Origin: Promethearchaeum syntrophicum
GTDB lineage: Archaea; Asgardarchaeota; Lokiarchaeia; Sigyniarchaeales; Promethearchaeaceae
Reading direction: 5' to 3'
NCBI RefSeq assembly: GCF_008000775.2
Contig: NZ_CP042905.2
Span: 4,140,001-4,172,000, forward strand
DNA length: 32,000 nt
The notes beneath the pieces were generated by a model. It worked only from the letters and a program-made list of their open reading frames with translations, did no database searches and was not told the DNA's origin. A program made the position numbers and the translations under genes. Positions within the stretch are counted from its first letter, which is position 1. Each line of letters begins with the position of its first letter. Positions 2,942 to 19,470 of the stretch are shown one piece after another.

Positions 2942-3916
2942 GTGAAAAATATGGGTGAAATTTGTCCAGCATGTGGAGAAGCAGAACTAACTGAATTAGT
3001 ACCGGGAGTAAAAAGTTGCCCCGCTTGTCGAAAGGTATTTCGTTCGAAGGTTGAAAAGAAAAAAATTCAAAAATCGGAAGGAAAACTTCTTGATGGGGAG
3101 TATTGGATGAAAAATACTACTCTTAATCCAAAATATGAAATTGCCGATAAAGGAATAACGATTTTTAGGGAGGAAAATAAGTTATGGTTTGCAGTTTTAT
3201 TGTGTCATACCCCTGATTTCCCTGATTCAAAATATATTCGATTATCTTGGTGGAAAAAAAGTGTGAATATCCATGCGGGTATGTTTAAAATTGAAGATTT
3301 GGATGAATTAGAAAATGTTTTAATCGCATTGAATCGTATTGAAGAAGATTTCGATGAATATTTTGAAGTAAAGGATAATAAGAAAATTTCATATGAGCCT
3401 ATTCCAGAAAGAAAGGATATTGATGATGAATCTTATGTTTTTAATCTAACTAAAAGAAAATGCCCAAAATGTGGTTGGAAAATGAAAAAAAGTAAAAATC
3501 ATCGCTATTATGAATGTGAAAAATGCGGAGAAATTATCGTATTAGATGATGGGCATCCGATTTATGATATCCCATCAAAATATTTACCAATGTCATATTC
3601 AACTAATTACCCTATCAATTTCTATTTACCCAATTATGGAATTACAGTTAGTAATAAAATGGGGAATTGGAAAGCGATTATCACAATCCATGCAAAAGAA
3701 AACCCCGACAAAAGATGGTTACGATTTTATTGGTGGAGAAGAAATTTCCAACATTATATGACTAGTCAATACTCACTTGGTTCATCCCAAGGATTAAAAT
3801 GGGAAACGCGAAAAGGAGTTATGTCACCCAACATCTATGATAAGAAGTTGATAGCCCCACTAATTAAAGGATTAGAAGAAATGAAGAAAATTTGGTTAAT
3901 GAGTAAAGAGGAATAG
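2942..3916 (+). CDS. Double zinc-ribbon protein with internal two-fold duplication, operon gene 2
   Basis: GTG at 2942, or ATG 9 nt downstream. Ribbon 1 is CPACGEAELTELVPGVKSCPAC and ribbon 2 is CPKCGWKMKKSKNHRYYECEKCG. Each ribbon is followed by a roughly 110-aa domain carrying a WW(K/R)(K/R) motif: YIRLSWWKK and WLRFYWWRR. Confidence 0.8.
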   Translation: MKNMGEICPACGEAELTELVPGVKSCPACRKVFRSKVEKKKIQKSEGKLLDGEYWMKNTTLNPKYEIADKGITIFREENKLWFAVLLCHTPDFPDSKYIRLSWWKKSVNIHAGMFKIEDLDELENVLIALNRIEEDFDEYFEVKDNKKISYEPIPERKDIDDESYVFNLTKRKCPKCGWKMKKSKNHRYYECEKCGEIIVLDDGHPIYDIPSKYLPMSYSTNYPINFYLPNYGITVSNKMGNWKAIITIHAKENPDKRWLRFYWWRRNFQHYMTSQYSLGSSQGLKWETRKGVMSPNIYDKKLIAPLIKGLEEMKKIWLMSKEE

Positions 3917-3918
3917 AG

Positions 3919-5064
3919 ATGGAAAACGAATTAGAAAGCGATTTATGGTCAGAATTGATAGAAAAATTTGGAAATTCTATAAAAAAATCCTTAGAAGTAA
4001 TCAAGGAAAGAGATATTGAGAATATTCCAGGAGCAAAAGAACAATTAATAAGACGCTTTGAAGAATTAAATCGATATCTTCCACGAAATAATGGAGAAAT
4101 TATGATTAAAAGTATAGATGAATCGATTTCGAACTCATTTTTTCCTCAAACCAACAAATTAGCTGTAGCATTTGAAAAAATTTTAAAAACTCTCGAACAA
4201 CAGCATGAAAATGCATTTATAATTAATGAATTAATTAATGGGTTTGTTGCCAGTCAAAGTAAATCGTTTGGATCCTTTAAAGAAGGGCCTATTATAGATC
4301 GTATTATTGAAGCCTTTAAAAAATCAAAGAATTTTCGTATATCTGATTATTCTTTTTATGCAATGTTTGGAAACCCAAATAAACCCAGAAAAAATCTCCA
4401 AACTAATTTGAAATCAATAGCAGAATTTCTTGGATTAGTAAAAGAAGAAAAAATATATGCACGTGATCTTGCTAGAAGTGAGGAAAAAGCAGTTAATTTC
4501 TATACATTCCCTCCGGAAATCTTAGAATTATTAGAAGGAACCTATATTATTCACACTGAAAAAGGCGAGACAATTATTAATGATGATTTTGATAAGAACG
4601 TCTTTACCAGCTTATTCTTGGCAAGATATTCAGTTGGGAGAAAAAACCTAGATGCCTACAAAATAAATGGAATCTGTGCAATTTTTGCTCTTATTCTCAT
4701 ATTAAGCTTTATGCCTAAAGTTAAATTAGCGGAAAATAACCCTATTTTACGTGATCGTAATTATGATTCCCAAAATATGAGTGTGATTCCGAAATCTTGG
4801 ATGATGAAAGAAGTTTTAGTAGAGTTACTTCCTAGCACTATCGAAATAGTAGCATATAGAATGGGAGCATCTCTATGGTATAATAAAATCGAAAAATCTG
4901 ATGCTCAAAAACGATTGCATCTTCAAACTCGATTTTTAATTAAGGATGTTAATAAATGGGTACTAGGAAACTTGTGTAGAGTAGAAATCCCAATATTTGT
5001 TGAAATAAGTAATATTTTCCAGGAAATTACTGTAGATGGAACAGATACGGATTATAATAATTAA
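3919..5064 (+). CDS. Hypothetical protein, operon gene 3 (381 aa)
   Basis: GAGGA lies upstream of the ATG, with a 2-nt gap from gene 2. One segment, VFTSLFLARYSVGRKNLDAYKINGICAIFALILIL, resembles a segment of gene 4. Confidence 0.8.
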   Translation: MENELESDLWSELIEKFGNSIKKSLEVIKERDIENIPGAKEQLIRRFEELNRYLPRNNGEIMIKSIDESISNSFFPQTNKLAVAFEKILKTLEQQHENAFIINELINGFVASQSKSFGSFKEGPIIDRIIEAFKKSKNFRISDYSFYAMFGNPNKPRKNLQTNLKSIAEFLGLVKEEKIYARDLARSEEKAVNFYTFPPEILELLEGTYIIHTEKGETIINDDFDKNVFTSLFLARYSVGRKNLDAYKINGICAIFALILILSFMPKVKLAENNPILRDRNYDSQNMSVIPKSWMMKEVLVELLPSTIEIVAYRMGASLWYNKIEKSDAQKRLHLQTRFLIKDVNKWVLGNLCRVEIPIFVEISNIFQEITVDGTDTDYNN

Positions 5065-5084
5065 CACATATACGGTGAAAAATC

Positions 5085-6332
5085 ATGGCACGTGAAAGAT
5101 GGGAAGAAATTGTAGCATATTATAAAACTTACATTTCGATACTTCAACCTTTATTGAAAGAAACCAGAAGACTTTTCTTAGATTTGACTTCAGAAGAATT
5201 ACTGGATTTTTCAGCTTTACAAGAAAAATTGGAAGAGGAAACTAAAAGAAAAATCAATACAGTAAAAGCCATTGCAGAATTTAATGCTTTTTTCAGGAAA
5301 GAGATTTTTAAACATATTCTTAACTATATCGGAGAAGTTCAGAAAGATTTTGAAGTCCTTGATATAAAGGATAATATAATAGATTTCCTAGATGAATCTA
5401 TTCATGCATTTGATGGTTTATTAGCCTTAATTCAAGAAGATTTTTCAAAACAAGAAGGATCCCCCTTGAATTTTCTGTTCGACTTGTTAAATGAAATATT
5501 ACTTCCAAATGGAGATAATCTGGAAAGTATTTATGAACAGTTATTAGAAAAATCTGAAGAGTGGTATGAAGCTCAAAGGCATATTCTTAGCCCAACTACA
5601 TTTTATAGGGAAAAAATTGGAGAAATGACAATTCCTGGATTAAGTCCAAAAACATATCAGATTATAAATGGGATTACCTCACTTTTTAACCTCGATCCAA
5701 ATTATTTGGATATGGATGAAAATCCTAATTATGTTGTACCTGCAATTATGGTCTCTGACATTTTTGAACCTTACATAGATAATATTGCAAATGCTGAGGA
5801 AGAGTCAATTAAAAGAATTTGCAGTAGATTGGAATTACGAATCACTGATGGAATTTTTATATCTCCCTCAGAGGAATTATTACAATTAGCAGAACCGCAT
5901 AACTTTTTCAGTAGACAAAATGATTCAGATGGAAAAACTCGTTGGATTCCTCAATTCAGTAATGAAACATTTGTATTATTATACTTAGCAAAGGTATCCA
6001 TGCGAAGAGGGTTCCTTTCAAAAGAACTAATTAATTGGATATCGATGAATTTCTCATTTATTATTTATAACACAGTTTTACACGCAAATCTATCCGATGA
6101 GAATATTTTTTATAATTTATTCTTAGATCTTAAAACTGAAGAAAAAATCATTCCGTATTTAATGAAAATCTTGTGTTTTGAGAATTATCTTAGATTAGAC
6201 AGAACTAAAATACGTGATTCTCCGGTATACAGGAAAGAACTATTCAATTTTCTAGGATCAAAAATTGAAATAATTGATAAAATAACATATCTACTAGTAG
6301 AGAAATATGAAAAATTTATGAATCCTAAATAA
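5085..6332 (+). CDS. Hypothetical protein, operon gene 4 (415 aa), possible distant paralogue of gene 3
   Basis: GGTGA lies upstream of the ATG. The segment TFVLLYLAKVSMRRGFLSKELINWISMNFSFIIYN aligns by eye with the gene 3 segment (shared pattern F..L.LA[RK].S..R..L....IN.I...F..I). Confidence 0.8.
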   Translation: MARERWEEIVAYYKTYISILQPLLKETRRLFLDLTSEELLDFSALQEKLEEETKRKINTVKAIAEFNAFFRKEIFKHILNYIGEVQKDFEVLDIKDNIIDFLDESIHAFDGLLALIQEDFSKQEGSPLNFLFDLLNEILLPNGDNLESIYEQLLEKSEEWYEAQRHILSPTTFYREKIGEMTIPGLSPKTYQIINGITSLFNLDPNYLDMDENPNYVVPAIMVSDIFEPYIDNIANAEEESIKRICSRLELRITDGIFISPSEELLQLAEPHNFFSRQNDSDGKTRWIPQFSNETFVLLYLAKVSMRRGFLSKELINWISMNFSFIIYNTVLHANLSDENIFYNLFLDLKTEEKIIPYLMKILCFENYLRLDRTKIRDSPVYRKELFNFLGSKIEIIDKITYLLVEKYEKFMNPK

Positions 6333-6352
6333 AAAAAAAAAAGTGAAAAATA

Positions 6353-7423
6353 ATGACATTTACAATTGAAGAAATGCAACAGCGTTTCAGAAAATTTGGG
6401 ACAATTTATTCAGGTGATGATATCAGAGAAGATGTTGAAGATATTATCGGATTGGAAGATAAAAAAGAGATGATGGCTGATTTTTTTCTATCATTAAAAA
6501 AATATGGCGACATAGCTTCTAACTTACAAGCTGCAAAAATCGCACCTAATTTTACTATGTTACTATATGGCCCTCCTGGAACAGGCAAAACAGCATTAAC
6601 TAGAGCAATGGCAAAGAAATACGAGATTCCAATGGGACTAGTTGATGCAGATAGGTTAGTATCTCCATTATTGGGAGATACTGTGAAAAATATTCGAGGA
6701 GTATTCGATTTAGCAGCAGAATTTTCAAAGGAAAATGGCGTATTTCTTCTTTTTTTTGATGAAATTGATGCCATAACAGGAGAACGTGCAAATGCACATG
6801 AAGTAGGTGAAATTAAAAGAGCAGTCATATCTTTCTTACAAATAATTGATAAAATTTCTTATGATGCTATCCCTCTAGCAATCTTCGGAGCAACGAATCA
6901 TGAAAAACAATTAGATTCAGCCATATGGAGAAGATTTACGTATCATTTAAAATTTCAATTTCCAAATTTTATTGTTCGTAAAAATATCCTAGAATCTTTC
7001 ATTCTCCGAGTTGAAAAAGCAACAATTGGAATAGATCCACGCTTAACGGAATCAATTGAATCAGAATATAAATTTTTATTCCAGAGATATTCAAAATTGA
7101 AAGAAAAATTAGGAAGAGAATTGAACGACGAAGAATATTATGGAATTTTTGATGAATTGAAACAAAAGGGTAAAGAAGGAATTCTATATCATACTTTAGG
7201 ATATACAGGGGCAGATTTAATGCGGGCAATGAGGGTAGCTTTGTTCAAAGCATTACAAAAGAATATGTTGTTGTATGATGATTATTTTCGATCCTTAGAA
7301 TTAGTCGGAGGAACTGAAACACACGTTTTACAAGGATTACGACTAGCTAAAGAGAATTCAGCAAACCAAGAGGAAAATAAACCTCCTACAAGTGATTTAA
7401 GTGATTTTGATATAGATATTTAA
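6353..7423 (+). CDS. Classic-clade AAA ATPase with a very short N-terminal region and an acidic C-terminal tail, operon gene 5
   Basis: Walker A is GPPGTGKT (about 6569-6592) and Walker B is LLFFDEID (D-E at 6758-6763). Sensor-1/SRH reads GATNHEKQLDSAIWRRF. The lid motif is GYTGADLMRAMRVAL. No MIT, CDC48-N or other N-domain is seen. Confidence 0.9.
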   Translation: MTFTIEEMQQRFRKFGTIYSGDDIREDVEDIIGLEDKKEMMADFFLSLKKYGDIASNLQAAKIAPNFTMLLYGPPGTGKTALTRAMAKKYEIPMGLVDADRLVSPLLGDTVKNIRGVFDLAAEFSKENGVFLLFFDEIDAITGERANAHEVGEIKRAVISFLQIIDKISYDAIPLAIFGATNHEKQLDSAIWRRFTYHLKFQFPNFIVRKNILESFILRVEKATIGIDPRLTESIESEYKFLFQRYSKLKEKLGRELNDEEYYGIFDELKQKGKEGILYHTLGYTGADLMRAMRVALFKALQKNMLLYDDYFRSLELVGGTETHVLQGLRLAKENSANQEENKPPTSDLSDFDIDI

Positions 7424-7566
7424 ACGAATCGAGGGGAATTATAATTTTAGAAAGAAATTACACTGATATTAAAATAATAAATCGGGATTCTGTTCAATTT
7501 TTTTCGGAAATCATCGATTCCATTAAAGAAAATCAGAGTAATTTAGATGAACCTGCAGATTCTTAT

Positions 7567-8265
7567 ATGGAATTACTTTCTGAACAGATTAATAATAATA
7601 TCTCCGATATGGCAATAATTTTTAAGAAAATTCAGAAATTTCTAACTGAAGATTATCAAAACGAACTGTTTTTTGACATGCAAAATCTTTCAAAATATTC
7701 AATTGTAAAAGAAATAGGTATTAATCTTCTTAAAAATCGAATTCTCGAAAAACCAATAGAAAGCGATAATATTGTATTTGCAATATATAAAAAATATTGG
7801 GACGCATTGCTACAAAGAATGATTAAATCTTCTAAATTCAATTCTACAATAGAAAAACTAAAAAATTTTCATTATGAGGCTATTAATGATAAAATTAATG
7901 AAGAACTAAAGAAAATCCCAATAGAGATAGATCCAAGTGTAAGGGATGACTACAAAAAAGCATATTATAGTAATCCTTTAACTTTTAGTGAATATCTAAA
8001 TTTTGAACAGAAAAAGCATAAAGAAAGCCAATATTCTCAAGAACAACCAGATTCTTTTAATTCCTCAGAGAAATTACGGAAAGAATTTGTGATGGCCGTT
8101 GAAAAAAAAAAAATTGACAAGAAAAAGGAAGAACAGGAAAAGCAATTTGATAATTATAATGCGTATTTCAACATGGATGATCGCCAATTACAACGCGCTA
8201 AAAGAAATGGAAAAATGAGAAGAAAATATACTAAAAAAACGCGAAAGGAGAAATACAAAAAATGA
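7567..8265 (+). CDS. Hypothetical helical protein with a strongly basic K/R-rich C-terminal tail, operon gene 6. The N-terminus may extend upstream to about 7438.
   Basis: The C-terminus is RAKRNGKMRRKYTKKTRKEKYKK. The stop overlaps the next start (ATGA at 8262-8265). The reading frame is open upstream to 7411, with GAGGGG (7431-7436) preceding ATT/ATA codons. Confidence 0.75.
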   Translation: MELLSEQINNNISDMAIIFKKIQKFLTEDYQNELFFDMQNLSKYSIVKEIGINLLKNRILEKPIESDNIVFAIYKKYWDALLQRMIKSSKFNSTIEKLKNFHYEAINDKINEELKKIPIEIDPSVRDDYKKAYYSNPLTFSEYLNFEQKKHKESQYSQEQPDSFNSSEKLRKEFVMAVEKKKIDKKKEEQEKQFDNYNAYFNMDDRQLQRAKRNGKMRRKYTKKTRKEKYKK

Positions 8266-9893
8266 TTAAACTTAATATTGATTCACATGAAATTCCTATT
8301 AATCAAAAACTGATGTTTCTCCAAGGAAATTATGATATTAATACAATTGAGAATCTTCCTTATTCTTGGATTGACTGGAATGAAAATCTAGAGATTTTAT
8401 TTAGAGACTCAGATTTGTTGATTGAATTTTTTTCACGTTTAAATTCCATTATCACTCATCAAAATTCAAAAAAAATAGGTTTAATATCTGATATCTGGAG
8501 AAATCTATATTCTACATTAAAAGAAAATAAAAATAATATTGCAAAATATGAAAAATTCAATGAGCTCAGTAAAAATTTGCGAAGTAAATCAAATTTGCTT
8601 CAAGATATTGAACGTTTAGAGTTAATGGAAAAAAATCTTGACCAAATGGTAAATCAAAGCATCTTTCAAAGTAAAAAAGATTTATTGCTTAAATTAGAAA
8701 AATTACTCGTAACACAAACTACAGAATTTAATATTCAATCTGATGAATTTTTTGTTAATAAACAAAGAGTTGATGAAAATCTTGCAATAATAACAAAATT
8801 TGACAACAATTTATCACGATTAAAGCAAGAACAAAGAATATTATTTAAGGAAACAAACGAACTCACAAAACAAATGGATTCTTTGGAGCCTTTAATGAAT
8901 GTTTATCAAGAAAAGCTTGAAGTGATTGATTCCTATAAAAATGGTAAAGATTATAATAGAATTAAAAAGAAATTCGAAGATATTGTAAAGGAACATGAAG
9001 ATTGCAAAAACGATAGAGTCCTCAAAATTAAAAAAAGCAAAGATATTACTCAAAAAATGCGGAATTTGCGAGTTCAGATTAAAAAAAATAACAATGATTT
9101 AAGAAAATTAGATTTGTCAAAGTTTAATGAAATTAAAAAAAACTATGAAGATTTAAAAACCGATCTCGAAAATACAAAAACTCAGATTACCTCAGTTCGA
9201 TTAGAAATTGATTCAATGTTAAATAACAGTGAAAAAAATGTCTCTCAAAATGATTTAAATCAAGATGATATGTTTTATTCAAACCCCACCGAAATTAAAG
9301 AACAATTGAAAAAGAAACGAAATCTAATCAGCCAAATCAATGATTTCTTTGAGAATACATATGATACCACCGATTTAGAGATAATTAAAAAGAAAATTGA
9401 TGCTGATAGAAGAAATTTATTGGATGAACTTACTTCCAATTCAGAAAAGCTTCAACTTTCATCTGAGAAATCTCACTATTATGAAGATTTATTAAAGAGA
9501 ATTAAAGAAATTCAATCATGGATGAATAAATTTTTGAGCAAAATTGATATGAAAATATCATTCTCTCTAGCATTTGATAAAGAAAACCTGAAATTAACAA
9601 ATAAAATTATGAAAAAAAATCAATATATCAACTTTAACACGGATTTAAAAAGAATTGAAAAAGCGTTTTTTTATTTTAGTGCGATAATTAGCAGTTACTT
9701 AGGAGAAAACTATAGGTTTATTCCCATAAGGATTAATAAATTGCCAAAATTTATGATAACGAAACAAAATTTCATAAAAAATATCAAAATGCTTGATGAT
9801 ATGTGTGAGGAATTACCTGAAGATATTAATATTATATTTTTTTTAGAAGAAAACAAGTTCGAAATTCCGTTAGAAATTATTAAAATTGACTAA
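8262..9893 (+). CDS. Long coiled-coil protein with SMC/Rad50/RecF-like end regions lacking a P-loop and Walker B (candidate degenerate SMC-like protein), operon gene 7
   Basis: AGGAG lies upstream. The N-terminus MIKLNIDSHEIPINQKLMFLQGNYDINTIENLPYS follows the SMC-head beta-strand pattern but has no GxxGxGKS. The central roughly 350 aa are K/E/L/N-rich heptad-like sequence. The C-terminus LKRIEKAFFYFSAIISSYLGENYRFIPIRINKL...INIIFFLEE mimics the signature/Walker-B/D-loop layout without the catalytic residues. Confidence 0.8.
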   Translation: MIKLNIDSHEIPINQKLMFLQGNYDINTIENLPYSWIDWNENLEILFRDSDLLIEFFSRLNSIITHQNSKKIGLISDIWRNLYSTLKENKNNIAKYEKFNELSKNLRSKSNLLQDIERLELMEKNLDQMVNQSIFQSKKDLLLKLEKLLVTQTTEFNIQSDEFFVNKQRVDENLAIITKFDNNLSRLKQEQRILFKETNELTKQMDSLEPLMNVYQEKLEVIDSYKNGKDYNRIKKKFEDIVKEHEDCKNDRVLKIKKSKDITQKMRNLRVQIKKNNNDLRKLDLSKFNEIKKNYEDLKTDLENTKTQITSVRLEIDSMLNNSEKNVSQNDLNQDDMFYSNPTEIKEQLKKKRNLISQINDFFENTYDTTDLEIIKKKIDADRRNLLDELTSNSEKLQLSSEKSHYYEDLLKRIKEIQSWMNKFLSKIDMKISFSLAFDKENLKLTNKIMKKNQYINFNTDLKRIEKAFFYFSAIISSYLGENYRFIPIRINKLPKFMITKQNFIKNIKMLDDMCEELPEDINIIFFLEENKFEIPLEIIKID

Positions 9894-9908
9894 AGAAGGT
9901 GGAAAACT

Positions 9909-10649
9909 TTGGCGAATGAAGTACTTTTACAGCAAATAAGTAGATTAATAATCCAGAATAAGAAAAAAATAGTTAACGAAAGAGATATAATAAATTTGTG
10001 TTCAAATGATGAAGAATATAAAGAAATACTCCCCATTTTAGTTCAGAATTTCAAACTTATAGGATTTTCCTTAATTCGAACAACTTTTCAAGGAAAGAGA
10101 TATTTCGTTTTAACAACTCCGGGAAAAGACGATATTATTTCTCCAAGTATGTACGGGACATTAGGATTGATTATTGCATTACATAATGAAGTCGGAAGAG
10201 AAATCGAATTAATTAAAATTAAACAGATTTTTAAAGAATTATGGGATGAAATTGAAGAATTAATCACGCATAACTACCTTCAAATTTCGAAAAATAAAGG
10301 ATCAGAGACACTAACTATAACTCCAATAGGAAAAGCGGCTTTTAAAAATATTTTGAAGGAGTTAAATCTTCCAAAAATTCTGACCTTCCAAGGTCTTGAT
10401 GAAACAATAATATCAACAGATGAACCATTAACAGAAACCGAAAAGAAAATAACAACCAAAAAGAAAACTACAAAGAAAAAGACTACAAAAAAGAAGACCA
10501 CTAAAAAAAAAACTACTAAGAAAAAGACTACTAAGAAGAAAACTACTAAGAAAAAGACTACTAAGAAGAAAACTACAAAGAAAAAGACCACTAAAAAGAA
10601 AACTACTAAGAAAAAGACTACTAAAAAGAAAACAACTAAGAAAAAATAA
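9909..10649 (+). CDS. Tandem winged-helix (kite/ScpB/MAGE-like pattern) protein with a C-terminal 13 x TTKKK tail, operon gene 8
   Basis: TTG start with GGTGG 7 nt upstream. Segments EYKEILPILVQNFKLIGFSLIRTTFQGKRYFVLT and YGTLGLIIALHNEVGREIELIKIKQIF...LITHNYLQISKNKGSETLTITPIGKAAF fit a two-WH pattern by eye. The tail is described below. Confidence 0.8.
   Translation: MANEVLLQQISRLIIQNKKKIVNERDIINLCSNDEEYKEILPILVQNFKLIGFSLIRTTFQGKRYFVLTTPGKDDIISPSMYGTLGLIIALHNEVGREIELIKIKQIFKELWDEIEELITHNYLQISKNKGSETLTITPIGKAAFKNILKELNLPKILTFQGLDETIISTDEPLTETEKKITTKKKTTKKKTTKKKTTKKKTTKKKTTKKKTTKKKTTKKKTTKKKTTKKKTTKKKTTKKKTTKKK
10452..10646 (+). repeat. In-frame 15-bp tandem repeat (13 units) encoding (TTKKK)13
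   Basis: Codon-by-codon reading gives 13 Thr-Thr-Lys-Lys-Lys units. Synonymous variation is present (aca/act/acc; aaa/aag). A 30-bp higher-order unit, actactaagaaaaagactactaagaagaaa, recurs. Confidence 0.95.
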
Positions 10650-10654
10650 AGCAA

Positions 10655-11821
10655 TTACAATTTATGTACGCCATCAGATGGAGTAACTTCGTAAGTAATT
10701 GCTGTTAATCCGAATTTTTCTTGGTATCCTTTTAATTTTGATATATATTCAGGAATTGCCTTCTTTTCTATCAATGTTAGAGTACACCCTCCAAAACCCG
10801 CACCGATCATCCTTGAACCATAACATCCTTCAATATTTTGGGCTGTTTCAACTAACCAATCCAATTCTGCACACGAAACTTCATAATATAATTTTAAACT
10901 TTCATGGGAGTCGTTCATTAATTGCCCGAATTTTTTTAAATCTCCATTTTTTAAGAATTTTTCAGCTTCAATAACTCGGTCATTTTCAGATATCACATGG
11001 AAAGCCCTTTTTTTTTGTTCGGGAGTGAAAAATTCACGAGATTTTTCATAATCCCCCATATTATAGTCTCGTAAAGATTTTCCGGGTTTAATTTCATTTA
11101 AAACTTTAACAGCTTCTTCACATTCAAAAACTCGTTCATTATATTTGGAAACGCTTAATTTGTGACTTACATTGGAATTTGTAATGATAAATCCTACAGA
11201 CTTTAATTTTAAAGGAATGTATCGATGATCGAGGGATCTACAATCTAAGAAAAATGCATTTCCAGCTTTTCCAAATTTTGCGGTAAATTGATCCATAATA
11301 CCACATCTTACCCCTACAACCTCTTGTTCCGCTTGTTGACAATATTTAGCCAGATCTTTATCTTTGATTTTCAATTTATATAATTGTTGAATCCCATAAG
11401 CTACAGCAACTTCTAATGCAGCAGATGAAGATAATCCTGCACCTTGTGGAATTGATCCCGTGAAAGAAACTCTTACACCACCAAATTTATGTCCGTGTTT
11501 TTGTAATATTTTAACAACTCCAATTGGATAATTTGCCCAATCATCACTACCGCTACTTTTCATTAAATATGCATACAAAGAAACGATTTTTTTTTCCTTA
11601 TCTAATGAGTAAACTGAAATTACCTCAGAATCTTGTATCCGCGAAATAGCTAAATCTATTCCAAGAGAAATAGCCATGGGTAACACAAATCCATCATTGT
11701 AGTCAGTGTGTTCCCCGATCAAATTAACTCGACCAGGAGAGTGGATAATTAACTCTGGAACCTCACCATATATCTCTTTATGTTTATCTATCAAAAGATT
11801 CTTATTTTTCATTTCCAACAA
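10655..11821 (-). CDS. galK: Galactokinase (GHMP kinase family)
   Basis: PGRVNLIGEHTDYNDGFVLP is the galactokinase signature and PQGAGLSSSAA is GHMP motif II. The C-terminal GAGFGGC is also present. Start is TTG at 11821 or ATG at 11812. Confidence 0.9.
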   Translation of the reverse strand: MLEMKNKNLLIDKHKEIYGEVPELIIHSPGRVNLIGEHTDYNDGFVLPMAISLGIDLAISRIQDSEVISVYSLDKEKKIVSLYAYLMKSSGSDDWANYPIGVVKILQKHGHKFGGVRVSFTGSIPQGAGLSSSAALEVAVAYGIQQLYKLKIKDKDLAKYCQQAEQEVVGVRCGIMDQFTAKFGKAGNAFFLDCRSLDHRYIPLKLKSVGFIITNSNVSHKLSVSKYNERVFECEEAVKVLNEIKPGKSLRDYNMGDYEKSREFFTPEQKKRAFHVISENDRVIEAEKFLKNGDLKKFGQLMNDSHESLKLYYEVSCAELDWLVETAQNIEGCYGSRMIGAGFGGCTLTLIEKKAIPEYISKLKGYQEKFGLTAITYEVTPSDGVHKL

Positions 11822-12422: not shown

Positions 12423-14438
12423 ATGAAAGAAAAATCCAAAATCCATGGTAAAAAATTAAATCCAGCAGAAATAAATGATTTGATTTTGGATTATGAAATT
12501 CTTCCTAAAACACATTCACCAATGTATTTGATGCATAAGTATTGGGCTAGAAAACCCGCAAATATCGTTGCTAATTACATTAAACGCTATTGTCCGCAAG
12601 AAGGTATTGTTTTAGACCCCTTCATGGGATCGGGAGTAACAATTTTAGAATCAATTTTTAGTAATCGTTTAGCCATTGGTATTGACGTGAATCCTATGGC
12701 AAATTTTATAACAAAAAATACTGGAATTTACGCCGATATATATAAACTAGAAACCGCATTTCAAATAATTAAAAATGAAGTTGAAAAAAAAAATTCTATA
12801 TTCTCACTTCTCTATGAAATTCAATGTGATTCGTGTAAAAACAGTAAAGCGATAATTACTCACATAATATGGTTAAAAAAGAAAGAAGATTTGAATCATC
12901 AAATAGAAGAGATCAGATATAAGTGTTCAAATTGCGGAGAAATAGTTATAAATAATTCAGATCTTAATTCTAGTTTTATTTCAATGAAAGAATTTATTTT
13001 GAATCAGGAGATAAATGCTTTAACATTTCTTTCTAAAGACGAAATAAAAAATCCGAATGTTTCATTCAAATATACAAATAATCAAGCGTTTATACAATTG
13101 CGACATAATTTACGAAAACAACCAGAACTAACCGAACTATTTACACAACGGAATTATGCTTTTTTGGTTTTTTTAATTCATATAATTAATAAATTATCAG
13201 ATAACTACGAAAATGAGAAAGAACTCTTAAAATTCTGCTTTACTAGCTCATTAGCACAAGCAAGTAAAATGGTTTGGGTCATCAATAAACGTAAGGGAAA
13301 AGCATTAAAAAAAAAACAAGTAGGTTCTTGGACCCACCACTTTTTTTGGGATCCATCAAATTTTTTCGAGGTTAATGCATGGAATTGCTTTAAACATAGA
13401 TATTCTAAATTAAAAAATGGAAAAATCGATTCTAATAAAAGAAATAAGAATTCAAATTCAACTTTTAAATTGGCAGATTCTTTTAGTGATCTTTCAATTA
13501 AAAAGCCTGTTCTCCTATGGAATACATCTTCAACGAAATTGGAACTACCAAATAATACTGTAGATTTTGTTTTTACTGATCCTCCTTACGGAGATTCTAT
13601 CCAATATGGTGAACTTTCAACTTTATGGAATGCCTGGTTAGATGTCGATATGGATCGATATAAAAAAAAAATGGAATTGAATGAAATTATAATCAATACA
13701 CATCAAGGAAAAAATTTGAAATCATACGAATTTAACCTAAAAAAAGTATTCAGCGAAATTTTTAGAGTTTTAAAGCCAGATAAATATATGGTTTTGACTT
13801 TTCATAATACATCTTTCAAAATTCGTAATGCACTGATAAATTCAGTAGTATCTTGTGGTTTTGAATTATGTCAAATATTATTTCAGTTACCTCCACGAGT
13901 TTCTATTAAATCTATGCTACATCATGAAGGTTCTCCTATAGGAGATTATTATATTAGATTCCAAAAACCTCTTCAAAGCCTAGATGATAAGAAAAAAACC
14001 AAATTAAAAACCTTAGACAATGAAGAGATCTATAAGATAATTAAAGATAAAATTAGCGAAATCCTAAAAAAACGGGGAGAACCAACTAATTTCATGTGGA
14101 TTTCAAACTTTCTAGATGAAATGCTATATAAATCTCATATATTTCCAATAGATAATCTTGAATTCTATATTACAAGACTTAAAAACTCCAATTTTTTTCA
14201 TATTAGTAAAGAAGGAAAATGGTGGTTTACACATGATTCAATACCAAAAGATTGTGAAAAACCTTTAACTGCGCAAATTGAAGATTTCTTAGAAATTTAT
14301 CTTAAGGATCACTGGTTAGATGTTAAATTATCTGATAGGACAAAAAAGCAAAAAATATTTAATGAAATTTATCGAAAATTTCGCGGTGTATATAGTCCAG
14401 ATAAATTTGAAACTAATCAAATAATCGAAAAATCTTAA
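12423..14438 (+). CDS. DNA (N6-adenine/N4-cytosine type) methyltransferase with motif I before motif IV and an inserted Zn-ribbon (COG1743/DUF1156-like architecture)
   Basis: The N-terminus has HKYWARKP, then DPFMGSGVT (motif I, about 12615-12641). A Zn-ribbon CDSC...CSNCGE follows, then TDPPYG (motif IV, about 13575-13592). Confidence 0.85.
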   Translation: MKEKSKIHGKKLNPAEINDLILDYEILPKTHSPMYLMHKYWARKPANIVANYIKRYCPQEGIVLDPFMGSGVTILESIFSNRLAIGIDVNPMANFITKNTGIYADIYKLETAFQIIKNEVEKKNSIFSLLYEIQCDSCKNSKAIITHIIWLKKKEDLNHQIEEIRYKCSNCGEIVINNSDLNSSFISMKEFILNQEINALTFLSKDEIKNPNVSFKYTNNQAFIQLRHNLRKQPELTELFTQRNYAFLVFLIHIINKLSDNYENEKELLKFCFTSSLAQASKMVWVINKRKGKALKKKQVGSWTHHFFWDPSNFFEVNAWNCFKHRYSKLKNGKIDSNKRNKNSNSTFKLADSFSDLSIKKPVLLWNTSSTKLELPNNTVDFVFTDPPYGDSIQYGELSTLWNAWLDVDMDRYKKKMELNEIIINTHQGKNLKSYEFNLKKVFSEIFRVLKPDKYMVLTFHNTSFKIRNALINSVVSCGFELCQILFQLPPRVSIKSMLHHEGSPIGDYYIRFQKPLQSLDDKKKTKLKTLDNEEIYKIIKDKISEILKKRGEPTNFMWISNFLDEMLYKSHIFPIDNLEFYITRLKNSNFFHISKEGKWWFTHDSIPKDCEKPLTAQIEDFLEIYLKDHWLDVKLSDRTKKQKIFNEIYRKFRGVYSPDKFETNQIIEKS

Positions 14439-14509
14439 AAGATTTAATTTTTAATATAGTAGAAATTATATTTTTTACCTTCCCTATTAATATAGGAGAA
14501 AAATTAAAT

Positions 14510-15532
14510 TTGGCGAATTGTAGTTTTCCAGAATGCGATGAGGTCTTAAATTACTTACCTTTTCGATGCAGATACTGTGGTGGAACTTACTGTAAAAAAC
14601 ACAGACTACCAGAAAATCATAAATGTTCCTTTGAGCTTCAAATACAACCTAAGAAAGAGGTTTCCCAAGAATTAAAACATTTAAAAGAAGAAGAGAAAAA
14701 ATCTAAAAATAATCAAATTCCTGAAGATAAATCCTATGAACAAATCGATAAGGAAATGCGTAATTATATTCGAGAACAAGAAAGAGCTGCAATGCCCCCA
14801 CCTCCAAGTCGTACGAGAGGAACTTTTGGTAGTCGTTCAAGAGGATATTCTCCTTTTATTTCGAGATCCAGTAAGCCAATAGGGACTTACTCCTTAATGG
14901 GATTATCAACTTTATTTTTTATTCTCTCACAAATTCAAGTGATTCCAGAATATATTTTACTTAATTTAAATACTCTTAGATTTGAATTCTTAACCCACTT
15001 TCCTTCTTTTTTCACAGCAATATTAACTCCTAATGGTTTGATTTCATGGATATTTACATTACTCATTCTATTTTGGTCTGGTAAAGTAATTGAAATGCAG
15101 ATGGGAACTAAATTCTTATTAACATTATATTTACTATCTGGTATTGCAAACGGTTTTGCGATTATTTTACTCCAATCGATAGGTCTTTTTATTAATATTC
15201 CGTTTTTTACTGCTATGACATATAATTTAAATTTATATTCTACTCAAAATGGCGCGTATTATGGATTAATGGTATTTATTCTTTATCGAATCGGGTTAGA
15301 TCGTGAAATGCGATTTTATCTATATTTTATTCCTGTTAGAATGAAAGCTAAATACATTCTCTATTTCATGATTGGAATCCAATTAATATATGGAGGTTTT
15401 GGAATAGTGAGAATTTTACTTGAATTGGAGGGTGCATATTATATTTTATCTTCTTTACCCCAACTTGGAGGAATTTTAGTCGGAGCTTACTTCTGGAAGA
15501 AATTTGGACGTCAAATAGTGAATTTTGTGTAA
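14510..15532 (+). CDS. AN1-type zinc-finger protein fused to a rhomboid-like multi-pass membrane domain that appears to lack the catalytic Ser/His
   Basis: TTG start with GGAG upstream. The AN1 pattern is CSFPEC...FRCRYCGGTYCKKHRLPENHKC. The rhomboid-like layout is WSGKVIEMQMGTKFLLTLYLLSGIANG...TQNGAYYGL...PQLGGILVG. Confidence 0.75.
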   Translation: MANCSFPECDEVLNYLPFRCRYCGGTYCKKHRLPENHKCSFELQIQPKKEVSQELKHLKEEEKKSKNNQIPEDKSYEQIDKEMRNYIREQERAAMPPPPSRTRGTFGSRSRGYSPFISRSSKPIGTYSLMGLSTLFFILSQIQVIPEYILLNLNTLRFEFLTHFPSFFTAILTPNGLISWIFTLLILFWSGKVIEMQMGTKFLLTLYLLSGIANGFAIILLQSIGLFINIPFFTAMTYNLNLYSTQNGAYYGLMVFILYRIGLDREMRFYLYFIPVRMKAKYILYFMIGIQLIYGGFGIVRILLELEGAYYILSSLPQLGGILVGAYFWKKFGRQIVNFV

Positions 15533-15574
15533 ATGTTTTTTTTCTTGCAATAACTTTTTTACGATTAATTTGTA

Positions 15575-16924
15575 ATGGATGATATAATGAGCATTGAATT
15601 TGAGGTTTTTATCGAGATTCCAAAAATCGCCGGGAAAATTGAAATTCCTAATAATCAAGAATTGATACATATTGGAAAACGCGAAATTAAAAATAGTGTT
15701 GTAAAAAATTTATCAGATCCAAGAGCTTTCGATTCAATTTCTAGCGTAAGAACTGATAAAGATACAGGAGCAGTAATTAAACAACAATTTATAATATCCA
15801 GAGTAAAAGATAAATATTTCATTGAAGATCAGAATAGCGCTAATGGCACGTATTTAGGAGGGATTAATCTTAAACAAAGCCCCCCAGCACCCTTGAAAAG
15901 CGGAGATGAAATTATAATTCCTATTGAAGAAAATGGTGAATTAATTCAGCTAAAAATGTATTTTCATATTGAAAAAAAAAAATCTGCTCCAGGAGCTCAA
16001 TCACAGCAGAAACAAATCCATTATCCAACACTGGATTTAGATGAAGCAGAATATTCTGATCCTACAATAACCCCTACAATCCCATCTTCGGCAAATCAAG
16101 CAGTAAAGGCAGGTTCATATCAATATAAATCCTTTATTTATGATCCCAACGATCCGATAAACACTTCCAATAGTTTTATTATGATACAGAGAACTCAAGC
16201 CATTCCACCCAATGCTTTCCAACCCAATTCTGGTTTAGACCTTTCAATGGTATATAAATTAGAAAAAAGTGAATTTTGGCATATCTTAGTTGCAGTGGGA
16301 TTGCTTTTTCTAATGATTTATAGGTATTATATAAATATTAATTTAATATTTTTAATTATCGGCTTGATAACTGATTCTCCGGGTCCTTCTTTAAATGATT
16401 TCTTTATTCAACCCTTACCTATTGCTCTTATTTTCGGTATTTCATTTATAACTCATGAATTATCTCACTTACAAACAGGAAAACATTTCAATTTTCAAAG
16501 TAGGTTTTGTCTAACTAAAGTTGGTGTAAAAGCCACTTTAAAATGGGCATTAATTGGATTTCCTTTTGGTCTCCCGGGTGCTGCGGTTTCAGTTGGTGTC
16601 GATCCAGTTAAAGATGAGGATAAGATGGGTTGGATAAAAATCGCGGGTCCATTTTCAAATTTTGTTTTAGGAGTAATTTTTATAATTCTTGCATTTTTCA
16701 TTCCAAGTGGCTCAATTATTGATTTAAAAGCCATTTTCGTACAAGCTAGTTCCTTAAATTTTGTTTTAGGAGCGTTTAATATGATTCCGCGAGAAGTGAA
16801 AGGATTTGCATTGGACGGGAAATTTATCATTAAATGGAATAAACCATGGTATTTTACGCTACTAGCAGGTTTAATATTGGGTTTTGCAACCGCAATTTTT
16901 TACTCCAATTCAGTTAATACTTAA
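15575..16924 (+). CDS. FHA domain fused to an M50 (site-2 protease) family intramembrane metalloprotease
   Basis: The FHA pattern is IHIGKREI...FIISRVKDKYFIEDQNSANGTYLGGINL...LKSGDEIIIP. HELSH lies at 16454-16468 in a TM helix. The downstream NMIPREVKGFALDG matches the M50 N..P....LDG motif. Confidence 0.8.
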   Translation: MDDIMSIEFEVFIEIPKIAGKIEIPNNQELIHIGKREIKNSVVKNLSDPRAFDSISSVRTDKDTGAVIKQQFIISRVKDKYFIEDQNSANGTYLGGINLKQSPPAPLKSGDEIIIPIEENGELIQLKMYFHIEKKKSAPGAQSQQKQIHYPTLDLDEAEYSDPTITPTIPSSANQAVKAGSYQYKSFIYDPNDPINTSNSFIMIQRTQAIPPNAFQPNSGLDLSMVYKLEKSEFWHILVAVGLLFLMIYRYYININLIFLIIGLITDSPGPSLNDFFIQPLPIALIFGISFITHELSHLQTGKHFNFQSRFCLTKVGVKATLKWALIGFPFGLPGAAVSVGVDPVKDEDKMGWIKIAGPFSNFVLGVIFIILAFFIPSGSIIDLKAIFVQASSLNFVLGAFNMIPREVKGFALDGKFIIKWNKPWYFTLLAGLILGFATAIFYSNSVNT

Positions 16925-17208
16925 TTGTTTTAAAAAATGAAATTTATCCAGATCTTTACATAATATCCGCTTTTTTTTCAATATTCCTTTTTAATTTAAA
17001 CACAAATCTTTCAAGGGATTTAATTCTTGGTTCCTTTTTTTCTTCATATTAAAGATAACATAGAAAAAATCTTATTATGATTCATAGTTCATTCATACTA
17101 TTGAAATCAAATAGGTTATTAAGAAAATAGACGTTTTTGTCCAAAAAGGATATAAATATAGAATAGGATTTACAATAATGGAAGTAATTTATTCTGAAAA
17201 TTAAAAAA

Positions 17209-19470
17209 GTGATTATAATGAGAAAAATAAGAAAATATTTTGCAATAGGGATTTTCTTTTTTAGCTTTTTAATACTAAATTTTAATGCACCAGCAGTTGG
17301 AATTGAACCTAAATCAAGTCGAGATGAATATTGGCCATTAGTAGTTGGAACTACAAATCTTGGAAATGATCTTGATCCAGCTAATGCATGGGATTCTTAT
17401 TCATTTGACATAATCTCACAAGTTTGGGAGGGTTTGTATGCCAATGATATAGGAAACGAACCAATGGGAATTATTCCCAGGTTAGCTACTAATAATGGAA
17501 TTTGGAATAGTGCGGGTGATGTTTTTAACGTTACGTTGCGTTCGGGAGTAAGCTTCCATAATGGACAAACCTTTGATGCAAGCACAGTAAAATATACGTT
17601 TGATCGATTATGGAATTTATGTGTATACCATGATACCCAAATAAGAGATTTATATTTTCCTTTTGGATTTAACACACCTGAAATGAATGAAACCATAGGT
17701 TATGGCTATATAATTAATGAGACAATAGTTGTTGATGCTACACATGTTAGTTTCAAACTAAACTTCCCTTATGTACCTTTCAAATCATTGTTGAGTTTTA
17801 GCGGTTCTTCTATTGTGGAACCCTCTACAACTGATATTGATACATTTATTAATTTTGATGATGTTAGTTTAGGCAGAGCAATTGGAACAGGACCATATAA
17901 AATTGTAGAATATTATCCAGACGATTATATTAATTTTGTATCTTATGATACCTATTATCGGGGAATTCCAGCAATAAAAAATATTAGATTTGAAAAATAT
18001 TCGAATTCTGCTGATATTTCACAAGCTTTACTAGATGGCTATATCGATTTTCCTAGGAGTATTGATAATAATAGAAGGAATGATTTTCAAGAGAACCTTA
18101 TGACTTTAGTTGAAGAACCTAATGAATTATCATTGTTTTACTACCTTGGAATGAATAACGATGAAATTGCAAAGGAATACAGGCAAGCAATTAATTATGC
18201 CATAGATTATGAATATATCTTGAATGATATATATGATAATACTTTGATACAAATGACGTCGATAATTCCTCGTAATATTATATATCATAAAGATTGTAAT
18301 GTTCCTTATTGGGATCTCTGGTATGCTAGACAAATTTTAATTGACGCAGGATTGTCGGGCACCTTAAACTATGGGTCCACAGATCAAGAATGGATAAATG
18401 TAGCAAATTCAGGTTCTCCACTTTTATCACTTTACTATCAATTTAATGAGGTAAATAAGTTATGGGAAGAAATTGGTTTATTATTGATTGATAATTTAGA
18501 AAAAATAGGAATAAAAGTATATCTTGAGCCTCTTCCATGGACAGAATTGATGAATAAATTAACTAATTATCCAGAGGAACTTGATTTATTTACACTTGGT
18601 TGGATGGCAGATTTCAATGATCCAAGCAATTTTATTAACTCTCTTTTGTCAAACACATCAAAACATAATGCTGCTCAAGTCAATGATCCATGGTTACAAA
18701 GTAAAATGAGTGAAGGTTTAGTTGAAATCAATGATTTAAATCGTGAAGTTATTTATTACCAAATACAAGATTATATTGCCACTGTTTTAATGCCTTTCGT
18801 GTTTCTTGGATATAAGATGAATACTGGAGTTCATACGGCTCATTTAGAAAATTTCCAATATAACTCCATGCGTATTACTTCCTATTTCGAATGTTCATGG
18901 GCTGATGATGAGTCAGATATCGGGGATGGGGATGGAATTCCTGATTTTTATGAATTTTATCAATATGGTACAGATCCATATAATTGGGACTCAGATTATG
19001 ACAATATTGGAGATTGGGATGAGATTTTTATGTATTATACAAACCCAAATGAATGGGACAGTGATCATGATTCTTTAGGAGATTGGGATGAAATTTTTAA
19101 TATTGGAACCAATCCGACTGATTGGGATACAGATGATGATGATTTGGGTGATGGAGATGAATTAAGTTTTGGAACTGATCCATTTATTTGGGATAGTGAT
19201 GGAGATGGACTTAGCGATGGTGAAGAAGTCTTGAGTTATCATACGGATCCAAACTATTGGGACACAGATTATGATGATTATTCTGATAAAGACGAAATCG
19301 ATGCAGGATCTGATCCACTTGATTCTGAAAGTACCCCCGAAAATGTTGGTGATTCAGGAACAGATCCTTTTGCAAATATCCCTGGTTATCCAGTTACTTA
19401 TCTATTATCTGTATGTATAGTTCTATCAATTGGACTTATATTTTTCACGAAAAAACTGATTAAGAGCTAA
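17209..19470 (+). CDS. Extracellular solute-binding protein (family 5, Opp/Dpp/Nik-like) with C-terminal thrombospondin-type-3-like Ca-binding repeats and a C-terminal TM anchor
   Basis: The N-terminal signal/TM is MRKIRKYFAIGIFFFSFLILNF (ATG at 17218; GTG at 17209). SBP_bac_5-like segments include GTGPYKIVEY and FTLGWMADFNDPSNF. The D-rich repeats read GTDPxxWDSDxDxxGDWDE. The tail is NIPGYPVTYLLSVCIVLSIGLIFFTKKLIKS. Confidence 0.8.
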   Translation: MIIMRKIRKYFAIGIFFFSFLILNFNAPAVGIEPKSSRDEYWPLVVGTTNLGNDLDPANAWDSYSFDIISQVWEGLYANDIGNEPMGIIPRLATNNGIWNSAGDVFNVTLRSGVSFHNGQTFDASTVKYTFDRLWNLCVYHDTQIRDLYFPFGFNTPEMNETIGYGYIINETIVVDATHVSFKLNFPYVPFKSLLSFSGSSIVEPSTTDIDTFINFDDVSLGRAIGTGPYKIVEYYPDDYINFVSYDTYYRGIPAIKNIRFEKYSNSADISQALLDGYIDFPRSIDNNRRNDFQENLMTLVEEPNELSLFYYLGMNNDEIAKEYRQAINYAIDYEYILNDIYDNTLIQMTSIIPRNIIYHKDCNVPYWDLWYARQILIDAGLSGTLNYGSTDQEWINVANSGSPLLSLYYQFNEVNKLWEEIGLLLIDNLEKIGIKVYLEPLPWTELMNKLTNYPEELDLFTLGWMADFNDPSNFINSLLSNTSKHNAAQVNDPWLQSKMSEGLVEINDLNREVIYYQIQDYIATVLMPFVFLGYKMNTGVHTAHLENFQYNSMRITSYFECSWADDESDIGDGDGIPDFYEFYQYGTDPYNWDSDYDNIGDWDEIFMYYTNPNEWDSDHDSLGDWDEIFNIGTNPTDWDTDDDDLGDGDELSFGTDPFIWDSDGDGLSDGEEVLSYHTDPNYWDTDYDDYSDKDEIDAGSDPLDSESTPENVGDSGTDPFANIPGYPVTYLLSVCIVLSIGLIFFTKKLIKS

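Follow-up and report, generated by a model that had tools for sequence, protein, structure and literature searches.

A predicted kite-like tandem winged-helix protein with a hypervariable TTKKK tail, encoded in a conserved operon of Lokiarchaeia

The winged-helix (WH) fold class and the concept of kite subunits (kleisin-interacting winged-helix tandem elements) in complexes of the structural maintenance of chromosomes (SMC) family are already known. In archaeal SMC5/6-like operons, the SMC, the kleisin and the kite are encoded together, and Asgard archaea contain up to three kite paralogues (bioRxiv 10.1101/2024.01.07.573240). Among described kites, NSE3 binds DNA (PMC4756808), and archaeal ScpB may itself not bind ScpA (PMC7055376). 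Here, we analyzed a 32-kb stretch of archaeal sequence with about 30% GC (the window; Promethearchaeum syntrophicum, contig NZ_CP042905.2), in which the open reading frame (ORF) at 9909-10649 on the + strand, with the start codon TTG, encodes a protein of 246 aa, referred to below as the target. A preliminary description of the same DNA had read this protein as a tandem-WH relative of ScpB, MukE and MAGE that ends in a lysine-rich repeat tail. Our analysis suggests that the target could be a kite-like subunit of an SMC-related complex, a tentative proposal that we hold to be nearly, but not quite, evenly balanced and in which we infer complex formation, DNA binding and the biological role.

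The AlphaFold2 (AF2) model of the target was built on an alignment of 20 sequences and reached a mean pLDDT (predicted local distance difference test) of 78.5, with 81-94 in the core, and a pTM (predicted template-modelling score) of 0.72. As had been proposed by eye, the model contains two consecutive winged helices, with the topology helix-strand-helix-helix-beta-hairpin appearing twice (residues 1-70 and 79-137); a short helix comes next, and the chain is disordered beyond approximately residue 150. The first domain (WH1, residues 1-70, 9909-10118 on the + strand, block pLDDT 82-92) comprises helices at 2-16, 24-30 and 34-50, a strand at 21-23 and a wing hairpin at 54-60/63-69, and according to the homologue alignment its invariant residues are N47, F48, G52, S54-T58 and G62. 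The second domain (WH2, residues 79-145, 10143-10343 on the + strand, block pLDDT 81-94) comprises helices at 79-95, 101-107 and 109-120, a wing hairpin at 124-129/132-137 and a further helix at 139-145, with P139, G141, K142 and AFKN 144-147 being invariant in the same alignment. The three segments that had been aligned by eye to kites map to helix 3 and the wing of WH1, to helix 1-helix 2 of WH2, and to helix 3, the wing and the next helix of WH2. While the globular part is charge-neutral (18 K+R vs 18 D+E), the disordered linker that follows it (residues 146-181, 10344-10451 on the + strand, pLDDT 35-67) contains 5 K+R and 7 D+E and is weakly conserved even among close homologues.

When the model was compared with the PDB using Foldseek, the first nine ranks were all occupied by kite proteins, in alignments of 163-189 columns that covered both WH domains. 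These were MAGE-G1 from a structure of its NSE1 complex (5wy5_B, E = 7.9e-4), ScpB of P. yayanosii (6juv_A, E = 8.9e-4), another MAGE-G1 chain (5hvq_D, E = 1.3e-3), ScpB 3w6j (E = 4.1e-3), MAGE-A4 (7uoa, E = 4.3e-3) and further ScpB chains, including 1t6s and 4i98 (E up to 1.0e-2). TFIIIC tauB was found at 1.3e-2, while MukE chains appeared at ranks 25, 33 and 43 (E from 7e-2). In addition, weak matches to the Pfam winged-helix family HTH_34 were obtained for 4 of 18 members of the target family. Based on the model, the globular part very probably adopts a tandem-WH, kite-like fold.

It should be noted that we use the term "kite-like" for a resemblance at the level of fold, short of demonstrated homology, as sequence comparison gave no link to ScpB, MAGE, MukE or ESCRT-II. 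Specifically, Pfam and NCBIfam searches returned no PF04079, TIGR00281, MAGE (PF01454) or Nse1 signal for the target. The likeness to ScpB, MukE and MAGE put forward in the preliminary description is thus upheld by the fold ranks, but not as a relationship detectable with Pfam or PDB profiles. Two further readings were considered and rejected. Membership of a known family by sequence found no support in Pfam, NCBIfam, PADLOC, PHROGs or PDB searches, and for a viral origin, a BFVD fold search gave no match below 1e-3 (the best being unnamed proteins) and PHROGs gave nothing.

The fold search also brings forward a different role, namely that of an ESCRT-II/Vps25-like tandem-WH adaptor in an AAA-driven membrane-remodelling or sorting module, where the polybasic tail would bind acidic lipids. 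Vps22 chains of ESCRT-II were indeed found at ranks 11, 12 and 15 (E = 1.5e-2 to 3.6e-2). Nonetheless, kites outrank ESCRT-II in this search, neither the operon proteins nor the 18 family members match ESCRT-II, EAP30 or Snf7 in Pfam, and transmembrane or lipid-binding domains were not seen. Together with the ATPase evidence discussed below, we consider this adaptor role very improbable.

The target gene is the last of eight co-directional and tightly spaced genes (1790-10649), numbered here from 1 to 8 in the direction of transcription. As judged from sequence, the strongest contextual support for a kite-like role comes from the most divergent family member, P0051, which is approximately 25% identical to the target and is encoded on a 467-kb Helarchaeota contig (L014). 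By BLAST, this contig contains orthologues of gene 1 (5e-11), gene 3 (3e-34), gene 4 (6e-26), the AAA gene (4e-84) and the WH gene (3e-8), with the AAA protein being 41% identical to that of gene 5. Three proteins are encoded between its AAA and WH genes, namely a protein of 1053 aa, a multi-WH protein of 292 aa and an orphan of 281 aa. The 1053-aa protein carries a Walker A motif (GRNGVGKS) and a Walker B motif (IVVIDEFD), and its middle region was read as hinge-like from the sequence. Among solved structures, it is closest to SMC6 (2e-14), archaeal Smc heads and SMC5; it aligns over its full length to yeast Smc6 and SMC5, and it matches NCBIfam SMC_prok_A at 1e-33. By these sequence criteria, it is a genuine SMC5/6-like ATPase. 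The 281-aa protein was tried as a candidate kleisin, as its termini resemble those of ScpA by eye, but Pfam, NCBIfam, PADLOC and the PDB returned no match. Downstream of the L014 operon (12440-19037), MoxR-type AAA and VWA genes and an RNase III-Piwi (Argonaute) pair are found in a defence-island-like arrangement.

In the window and at the other Loki-type loci, the neighbor of the WH gene is not an SMC ATPase but gene 7 (8262-9893, + strand, 543 aa), and the target family is linked to such a coiled-coil gene in every genome examined, over a range of 24-100% identity and with gaps that are usually 15 nt or less. In the window, the stop codon of gene 7 (9891-9893) is separated from the target start by 15 nt, within which a Shine-Dalgarno-like GGTGG (9898-9902, + strand) can be read from the sequence 6 nt 5' of the TTG. 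Homologues of the target begin at the equivalent residue, using ATG, GTG or TTG. AF2 predicts the gene 7 product to be an antiparallel coiled-coil hairpin (mean pLDDT 66.6), in which a helix (75-221), a turn (222-227) and further helices (228-427) form an arm scored mostly at 80-92. Its N-terminal (1-76) and C-terminal (430-543) regions are of low confidence, with pLDDT below 50 at the termini, which are also poorly conserved among orthologues. The best Foldseek matches of this model are full-length Rad50 (1.9e-5), the Smc5/6 arm, MukB, the Pyrococcus Smc coiled coil and JetC.

These matches agree with the SMC-shaped upstream product of the preliminary description as far as the long antiparallel coiled coil and the Rad50/Smc arm are concerned, but not with regard to ATPase motifs or a hinge. 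Walker A and signature motifs are missing from the seven gene 7 orthologues inspected and a Walker B motif from all orthologues, and the apex is a 6-residue turn (222-227, the YKNGKD region) with no hinge, globular domain, zinc hook or CxxC. We also considered a degenerate ABC/SMC head, as the C-terminus (DLKRIEKAFFYFSAIISSYL...FIPIRINKLP) and that of the 678-aa protein of locus L016 (L016_678) resemble by eye a signature helix and a Walker B strand. This candidate was rejected, with profiles of the termini alone retrieving no ABC/SMC chain from the PDB and giving no alignment to the L014 SMC head, and the full-length protein reaching a probability of 1.7% against the L014 SMC in hhalign. On the predicted structure, the gene 7 product shares the arm geometry of SMC proteins but lies outside the SMC/Rad50 family by these tests. 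In L001, the gene 7 orthologue (730 aa) carries a 190-aa C-terminal extension (L001 9430-9975) with two repeats, which end in ...PRGYHYN and ...PRGYSYN and could represent small DNA-binding modules. The WH protein of the same locus is tail-less.

The arrangement around the target is widely conserved, and in nearly all cases the WH gene closes an operon that also encodes an IetA-like AAA+ ATPase and orphan proteins. All eight genes are found in identical order in Ca. Lokiarchaeum ossiferum (55% identity), L001 (47%) and L012 (24% for the WH protein), and the distal genes have a matching arrangement in L002-L007, L017 and L018. As the flanks are conserved as well (Elf1 upstream; convergent galK, Lsm and a DNA methyltransferase downstream), the operon behaves as a stable chromosomal feature of Lokiarchaeia, unlike a mobile island, and the compared sequences indicate long vertical inheritance within this group.

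Gene 5 (6353-7423, + strand, 356 aa) encodes a classical AAA+ ATPase (PF00004, 2e-25) that is closest to the IetA type, with IetA in PADLOC at 1.7e-55 and CdvC as the second-best NCBIfam match at 1.6e-25. Against NCBIfam IteA, it scores 174.6 bits, where the cut-off is 510 and the AAA core alone is aligned. With this score and with no IetS-type protease found in the operon by Pfam, the protein cannot be assigned to IetA. Only about 55 residues precede the ATPase core, hence there is no MIT domain. This ATPase bears on two of the alternatives. For the ESCRT-II-like adaptor, the position of CdvC among the matches is in favor, as is the report that, in archaea, genes of wH and coiled-coil proteins frequently run in the same direction as those of Vps4-like ATPases, some of which are MIT-less (Makarova et al. 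2024, PMC10936438). However, the gene 5 product is itself without a MIT domain and its score for IetA is double that for CdvC, and the Helarchaeota version of the operon includes an SMC, which is a DNA-handling protein.

The second alternative is an SMC-like defence system of the Wadjet/Lamassu kind with an IetA-type ATPase, in which the target would serve as a DNA sensor or clamp and not as a chromosome organizer. The E-values of the ATPase against IetA anti-phage ATPases (1.7e-55 and 5.4e-60) are far lower than those against CdvC/Vps4 (1e-25 to 4e-30), the L014 SMC also matches the defence ABC ATPases mad3 (6e-18), LmuB (2e-16) and JetC, the L014 operon adjoins the MoxR-VWA and RNase III-Piwi genes, and the rapid divergence of genes 6 and 7, together with the hypervariable tail of the target, would fit an arms race. 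Yet the operon keeps the same housekeeping neighborhood (Elf1, galK, Lsm) over the range of 24-100% identity, a sign of long vertical inheritance that defence islands rarely show, all IetA scores (174-181 bits) are far from the cut-off of 510 with no IetS protease present, and a nuclease or protease effector was not detected. Matches to JetD (E = 0.0065) and REase_II (E = 7e-4) were weak, belonged to different families and were treated as noise. We thus judge a defence function to be unlikely.

Returning to a kite-like subunit of an SMC-related complex, several observations weigh against it and should be considered when referring to the evidence above. The E-values of the kite matches are marginal (8e-4 to 1e-2), and with TM scores (template modelling) of 0.25-0.35 and root-mean-square deviations of 10-15 Å, the relative orientation of the two WH domains differs from that in kites, while tandem-WH proteins of ESCRT-II (Vps22) and TFIIIC follow closely behind (E = 1e-2 to 4e-2). 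For the 18 family members, the sole kite match in Pfam at E up to 5 was MksE (E = 0.078), and the target has no kite-family match in NCBIfam, PADLOC, PDB phmmer or PDB profile searches. The operon version with an SMC ATPase is known from a single Helarchaeota contig, and that of the window has neither an SMC ATPase nor an identifiable kleisin. Moreover, genes 6 and 7 do not align with the SMC, 292-aa or 281-aa proteins of L014 (hhalign probability 0.1-1.7%), and the 281-aa putative kleisin of L014 has no homologue but itself among 5.8 billion proteins. As the synteny extends to the whole neighborhood (Elf1, galK, Lsm and the methyltransferase), gene order alone overstates the functional linkage. 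Finally, the divergent P0058 (L016 4319-6829) follows the 678-aa protein, which is without ATPase motifs, and there is no AAA gene within 6 kb upstream, such that the operon core is not universal.

The most distinctive part of the target is its tail (residues 182-246, 10452-10646 on the + strand), which in the translated ORF is exactly the (TTKKK)x13 stretch of 65 aa that had been described, with 39 Lys and no acidic residue. Thirteen perfect copies of a five-residue unit are far beyond chance. At the DNA level, Tandem Repeats Finder reports a period of 15 with 13.6 copies and a period of 60 with 3.3 copies. Nine distinct DNA versions are found among the 13 units, all differing by synonymous third-position changes, and a 30-bp super-unit is visible in the higher identity at lag 30 (0.879) than at lag 15 (0.789) and in units 5-8, where two exact 15-mers alternate; both features had been noted in the preliminary description and hold for the full set of units.

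To follow the tail across the family, units were parsed from the C-terminus, yielding 124 units from 16 homologues. A tail is present in 14 of 14 full-length homologues that are at least 83% identical to the target, P0015 (70% identical) has a degenerate basic C-terminus, and all orthologues of 56% identity or less are tail-less, including P0017, P0019-22, that of Ca. Lokiarchaeum ossiferum and the distant members. The tail is thus confined to a Promethearchaeum-level clade. Orthologues outside this clade lack the basic tail that the preliminary description had expected of them but retain the coiled-coil partner. Repeat-number polymorphism, which had been suggested as a check, is extensive, with 1-15 units per protein among homologues at least 70% identical and differences of up to 8 units between proteins with globular parts more than 90% identical. 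The 30-bp super-units are lineage-specific (TTKKK-ATKKK in L005 and L007, PTKKK-TTKKK in P0002 and, in the window, a pair of TTKKK versions that differ synonymously), and as different super-units were amplified in different lineages, tail expansion appears to be recurrent and recent.

Despite this variation in length, the composition of the unit is restricted. Lysine or arginine occupies 355 of the 372 residues at unit positions 3-5 and threonine is found at position 2 in 99 of the 124 units, while at position 1 the residue varies freely (T, A, S, V, P, I or K). No acidic residue lies inside the 124 units, the only two being in the boundary unit, and the reading frame of the tail is open in all 16 homologues. 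As a change from Lys to Glu requires one transition, like the abundant AAA/AAG flips, its absence argues for purifying selection on charge. At least 7 independent substitutions can be counted in the window tail, all of them synonymous; as 9 of the 45 single-base changes that a unit can undergo are synonymous, we calculate the chance of such an outcome as ~0.2^7, or ~1e-5. AAG accounts for 51% of the Lys codons in the tail and 16% elsewhere in the operon, an enrichment that limits homopolymeric A runs. The target ends with TAA (10647-10649), 5 nt from the stop of the convergent galK (10655-11821, - strand), and this stop-to-stop gap of 5 nt is also found in L001, L003, L004, L005, L007 and L010 regardless of tail length, such that the tail represents an in-frame internal expansion. 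Taken together, the sequences indicate that the tail is kept cationic by selection on the peptide. The suggestion of maintenance at the protein level in the preliminary description is accordingly strengthened, both by the synonymous differences in the window and by the missing acidic residues in the homologues.

The same data must be weighed against another reading, in which the target is a free-standing WH regulator or small chromatin protein at the end of an operon and the tail is a near-neutral slippage expansion on a disordered C-terminus. Many of the partial matches by fold and by profile are to single-WH regulators (MarR, ArsR, Sso10a, AspA), most family members are without the tail, whose length varies freely between 1 and 15 units, and AAR-rich repeats arise readily in AT-rich genomes. 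A tail that is dispensable in most of the family and unconstrained in length is likewise a point against the kite-like proposal, as it also fits a weakly selected slippage product. The DNA could also matter more than the peptide, given the antisense T runs (11 of at least 5 T) downstream of galK. However, a free-standing regulator would not be expected from the linkage to a coiled-coil gene at all levels of identity or from best fold matches that span both WH domains of kites instead of single-WH regulators, and the absence of acidic residues, the synonymous-only change and the open frame in 16 homologues favor selection on the peptide. We consider this reading distinctly unlikely.

With regard to the antisense strand of the tail region (10401-10654, - strand), its 11 tracts of five or more T, including a T10, lie just downstream of the galK stop, while the orthologous tail-less loci L001 and L010 have 1 and 5 such tracts, respectively. 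Oligo-T tracts serve as archaeal terminator signals. The repeat tail may additionally affect galK termination.

A second basic C-terminus is encoded in the same operon. Gene 6 (7567-8265, + strand, 232 aa as called) overlaps gene 7 by 4 nt and ends in RNGKMRRKYTKKTRKEKYKK, and a basic motif, RNGKMRRKYTKKTRxxKY (8200-8265), is kept in all its orthologues (L001-L012), including that of Ca. L. ossiferum. Among the ORFs of at least 100 aa in the window, only the target and gene 6 have a strongly basic C-terminus. We count this conserved neighbor in favor of reading the tail as a tether for polyanions, a putative role that we would place at an even balance. The gene 6 product has no kleisin-family match in Pfam or NCBIfam and no C-terminal WH domain. 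Before its ATG, 141 nt are open in frame (7426-7566), encoding ...IINRDSVQFFSEIIDSIKENQSNLDEPADSY, a sequence that is shared with the N-terminus of the L003 orthologue (271 aa) as a conserved segment. This segment contains no ATG, GTG or TTG, and the TTG start of L003 is TTA in the window. Gene 6 probably encodes approximately 270 aa from an upstream non-canonical start, or its start has just been lost.

In the mechanism that we propose, the WH pair of the target would dock on a complex partner (the product of gene 6 or gene 7), as kites do on kleisins, and would contribute a nucleic-acid-binding surface to a complex that handles DNA. The tail, (xTKKK)n with a charge of +39 here, would have been acquired in the Promethearchaeum-level clade and would lengthen and shorten as 15- and 30-bp units slip or recombine unequally, with its length being either tuned or drifting. 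It would then tether the protein electrostatically, and without specificity, to DNA or another polyanion, like the tails of linker histones or HupB-type proteins. Phosphorylation or glycosylation of the threonines and H1-like condensation, which the preliminary description had also raised, are speculative. A more far-reaching scenario, which we find improbable, is that an SMC5/6-like complex gave rise in Lokiarchaeia to an unrecognized machine for handling chromatin that is inherited vertically. In this scenario, the Helarchaeota version with its true SMC would be ancestral, the ABC-ATPase arm protein would have been replaced by, or have decayed to, a coiled-coil hairpin without ATPase in the Loki and Promethearchaeum lineages, the AAA+ protein would supply energy together with the two paralogous orphan subunits, and the kite-like subunit would have independently evolved a linker-histone-like polylysine tail of variable copy number that compacts DNA. 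If true, this would point to an Asgard-specific DNA organization of relevance to the origin of eukaryotic SMC5/6 and of linker-histone-type tails.

The remaining members of the operon are less informative. Gene 1 (1790-2941, 383 aa) is an orphan, and gene 2 (2942-3916, 324 aa) is an orphan with weak DZR/zinc-ribbon matches that is restricted to the Loki-type operon, with no counterpart in L014. Genes 3 (3919-5064, 381 aa) and 4 (5085-6332, 415 aa), all four being on the + strand, are orphans and paralogues of each other (hhalign probability 95%, E = 2e-8, 258 columns). Genes 1, 3 and 4 have no Pfam match, and genes 3 and 4 have no PDB match, even with cross-lineage profiles.

The target family is small and restricted to Loki/Helarchaeota. 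Homologues are found in metagenome bins of Promethearchaeota, Lokiarchaeota and Helarchaeota, where every named copy is annotated as "hypothetical". An exhaustive hidden Markov model (HMM) search of 1.84 billion cluster representatives yielded 39 proteins at E up to 1e-3, and most full-length members are tail-less proteins of 150-172 aa. A scan of a genome collection (alignment A2) revealed four loci, including Promethearchaeum metagenome-assembled genomes and the complete genome of Ca. Lokiarchaeum ossiferum, with its tail-less orthologue of 55% identity. In P0030 (295 aa, L015) and P0056 (221 aa), an acidic linker and an extra, apparently folded WH-like domain take the place of the lysine tail.

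No account of the operon or of the target family was found in searchable databases and literature. Three features appear to be new: a kite-like family that is an orphan by sequence, its occurrence together with an AAA+ ATPase and an SMC-shaped arm without ATPase motifs, and the hypervariable TTKKK tail. With no Pfam or NCBIfam match, the family would escape HMM-based censuses of kites. Should the target truly be a kite-like subunit, it would represent an additional and highly divergent kite lineage, and would connect the kite fold with both an AAA+ ATPase and an SMC-shaped arm that lacks ATPase motifs, for which we found no description. The range of 1-15 TTKKK units across strains would then amount to a natural experiment on how polycationic disordered tails tune DNA association. 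The result would be a modest one if the target instead proved to be an ordinary WH regulator whose tail arose by slippage. As both the cultivated Ca. Lokiarchaeum ossiferum and Promethearchaeum-type genomes contain the operon, these possibilities are directly testable.

Two other features of the window should be mentioned. At 28700-28798 (- strand), Rfam detects a tRNA (46.8 bits, 99 nt for a 71-nt model) where ARAGORN reports none, and this is probably an intron-containing archaeal tRNA. At 20070-20885, a tandem repeat of 291 bp, present in 2.8 copies at 92% identity, lies within the ORF 19919-21703 (- strand), whose product is probably a surface protein; the repeat encodes recurring Ig-like domains of the Kre9_KNH/fn3 type.

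When compared with known systems, the target shows partial likeness to each of them. It resembles ScpB in size (160-190 aa) and two-WH architecture, and six of its nine best fold matches are ScpB chains, but with a TM of about 0.3 it has another domain orientation and it is not encoded beside scpA or smc. With MukE, MksE and JetB it shares a tandem WH (weak matches) and an operon with a coiled-coil ABC-like protein, although the similarity is much weaker than to ScpB or MAGE, and a MukF/JetA kleisin or JetD nuclease is missing from the operon. The tandem WH and the co-direction with an AAA ATPase in Asgard genomes (PMC10936438) recall Vps22, Vps25 and Vps36 of ESCRT-II. The lower fold rank, the lack of an ESCRT-II/EAP30 Pfam match and of an ESCRT-III in the operon, and the MIT-less ATPase set it apart. 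In the case of Nse3/MAGE and Nse1, the tandem WH is again shared, with MAGE-G1 as the top Foldseek match and MAGE-A4 ranking high, and as with the Nse1/3 kites, a divergent family member is found in an operon with an SMC5/6-like ATPase. However, the target part of ~160 aa is shorter than the MAGE homology domain (~200), the 18 members give no MAGE/Nse1 Pfam signal, and in the window the partner is without ATPase motifs and no Nse4-like kleisin was found. We know of no repeat tail in Nse1/3.

For the tail itself, the closest comparison is with proteins outside the SMC field. Lysine-rich tails that compact DNA are found in H1 (S/TPKK), mycobacterial HupB/Hlp (PAKKA), Chlamydia Hc1 and Pseudomonas AlgP (KPAA), and the globular domain of H1 is a winged helix. 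Like these, the tail of the target is periodic and strongly cationic, is predicted to be disordered, lies C-terminal to a DNA-binding-type fold and has hydroxyl residues interspersed among the lysines. Unlike them, TTKKK contains no Pro or Ala, is perfectly periodic and varies in copy number at the level of strains, and, unlike the tails of histones and HU, it is carried by a predicted kite-like double WH within an operon.

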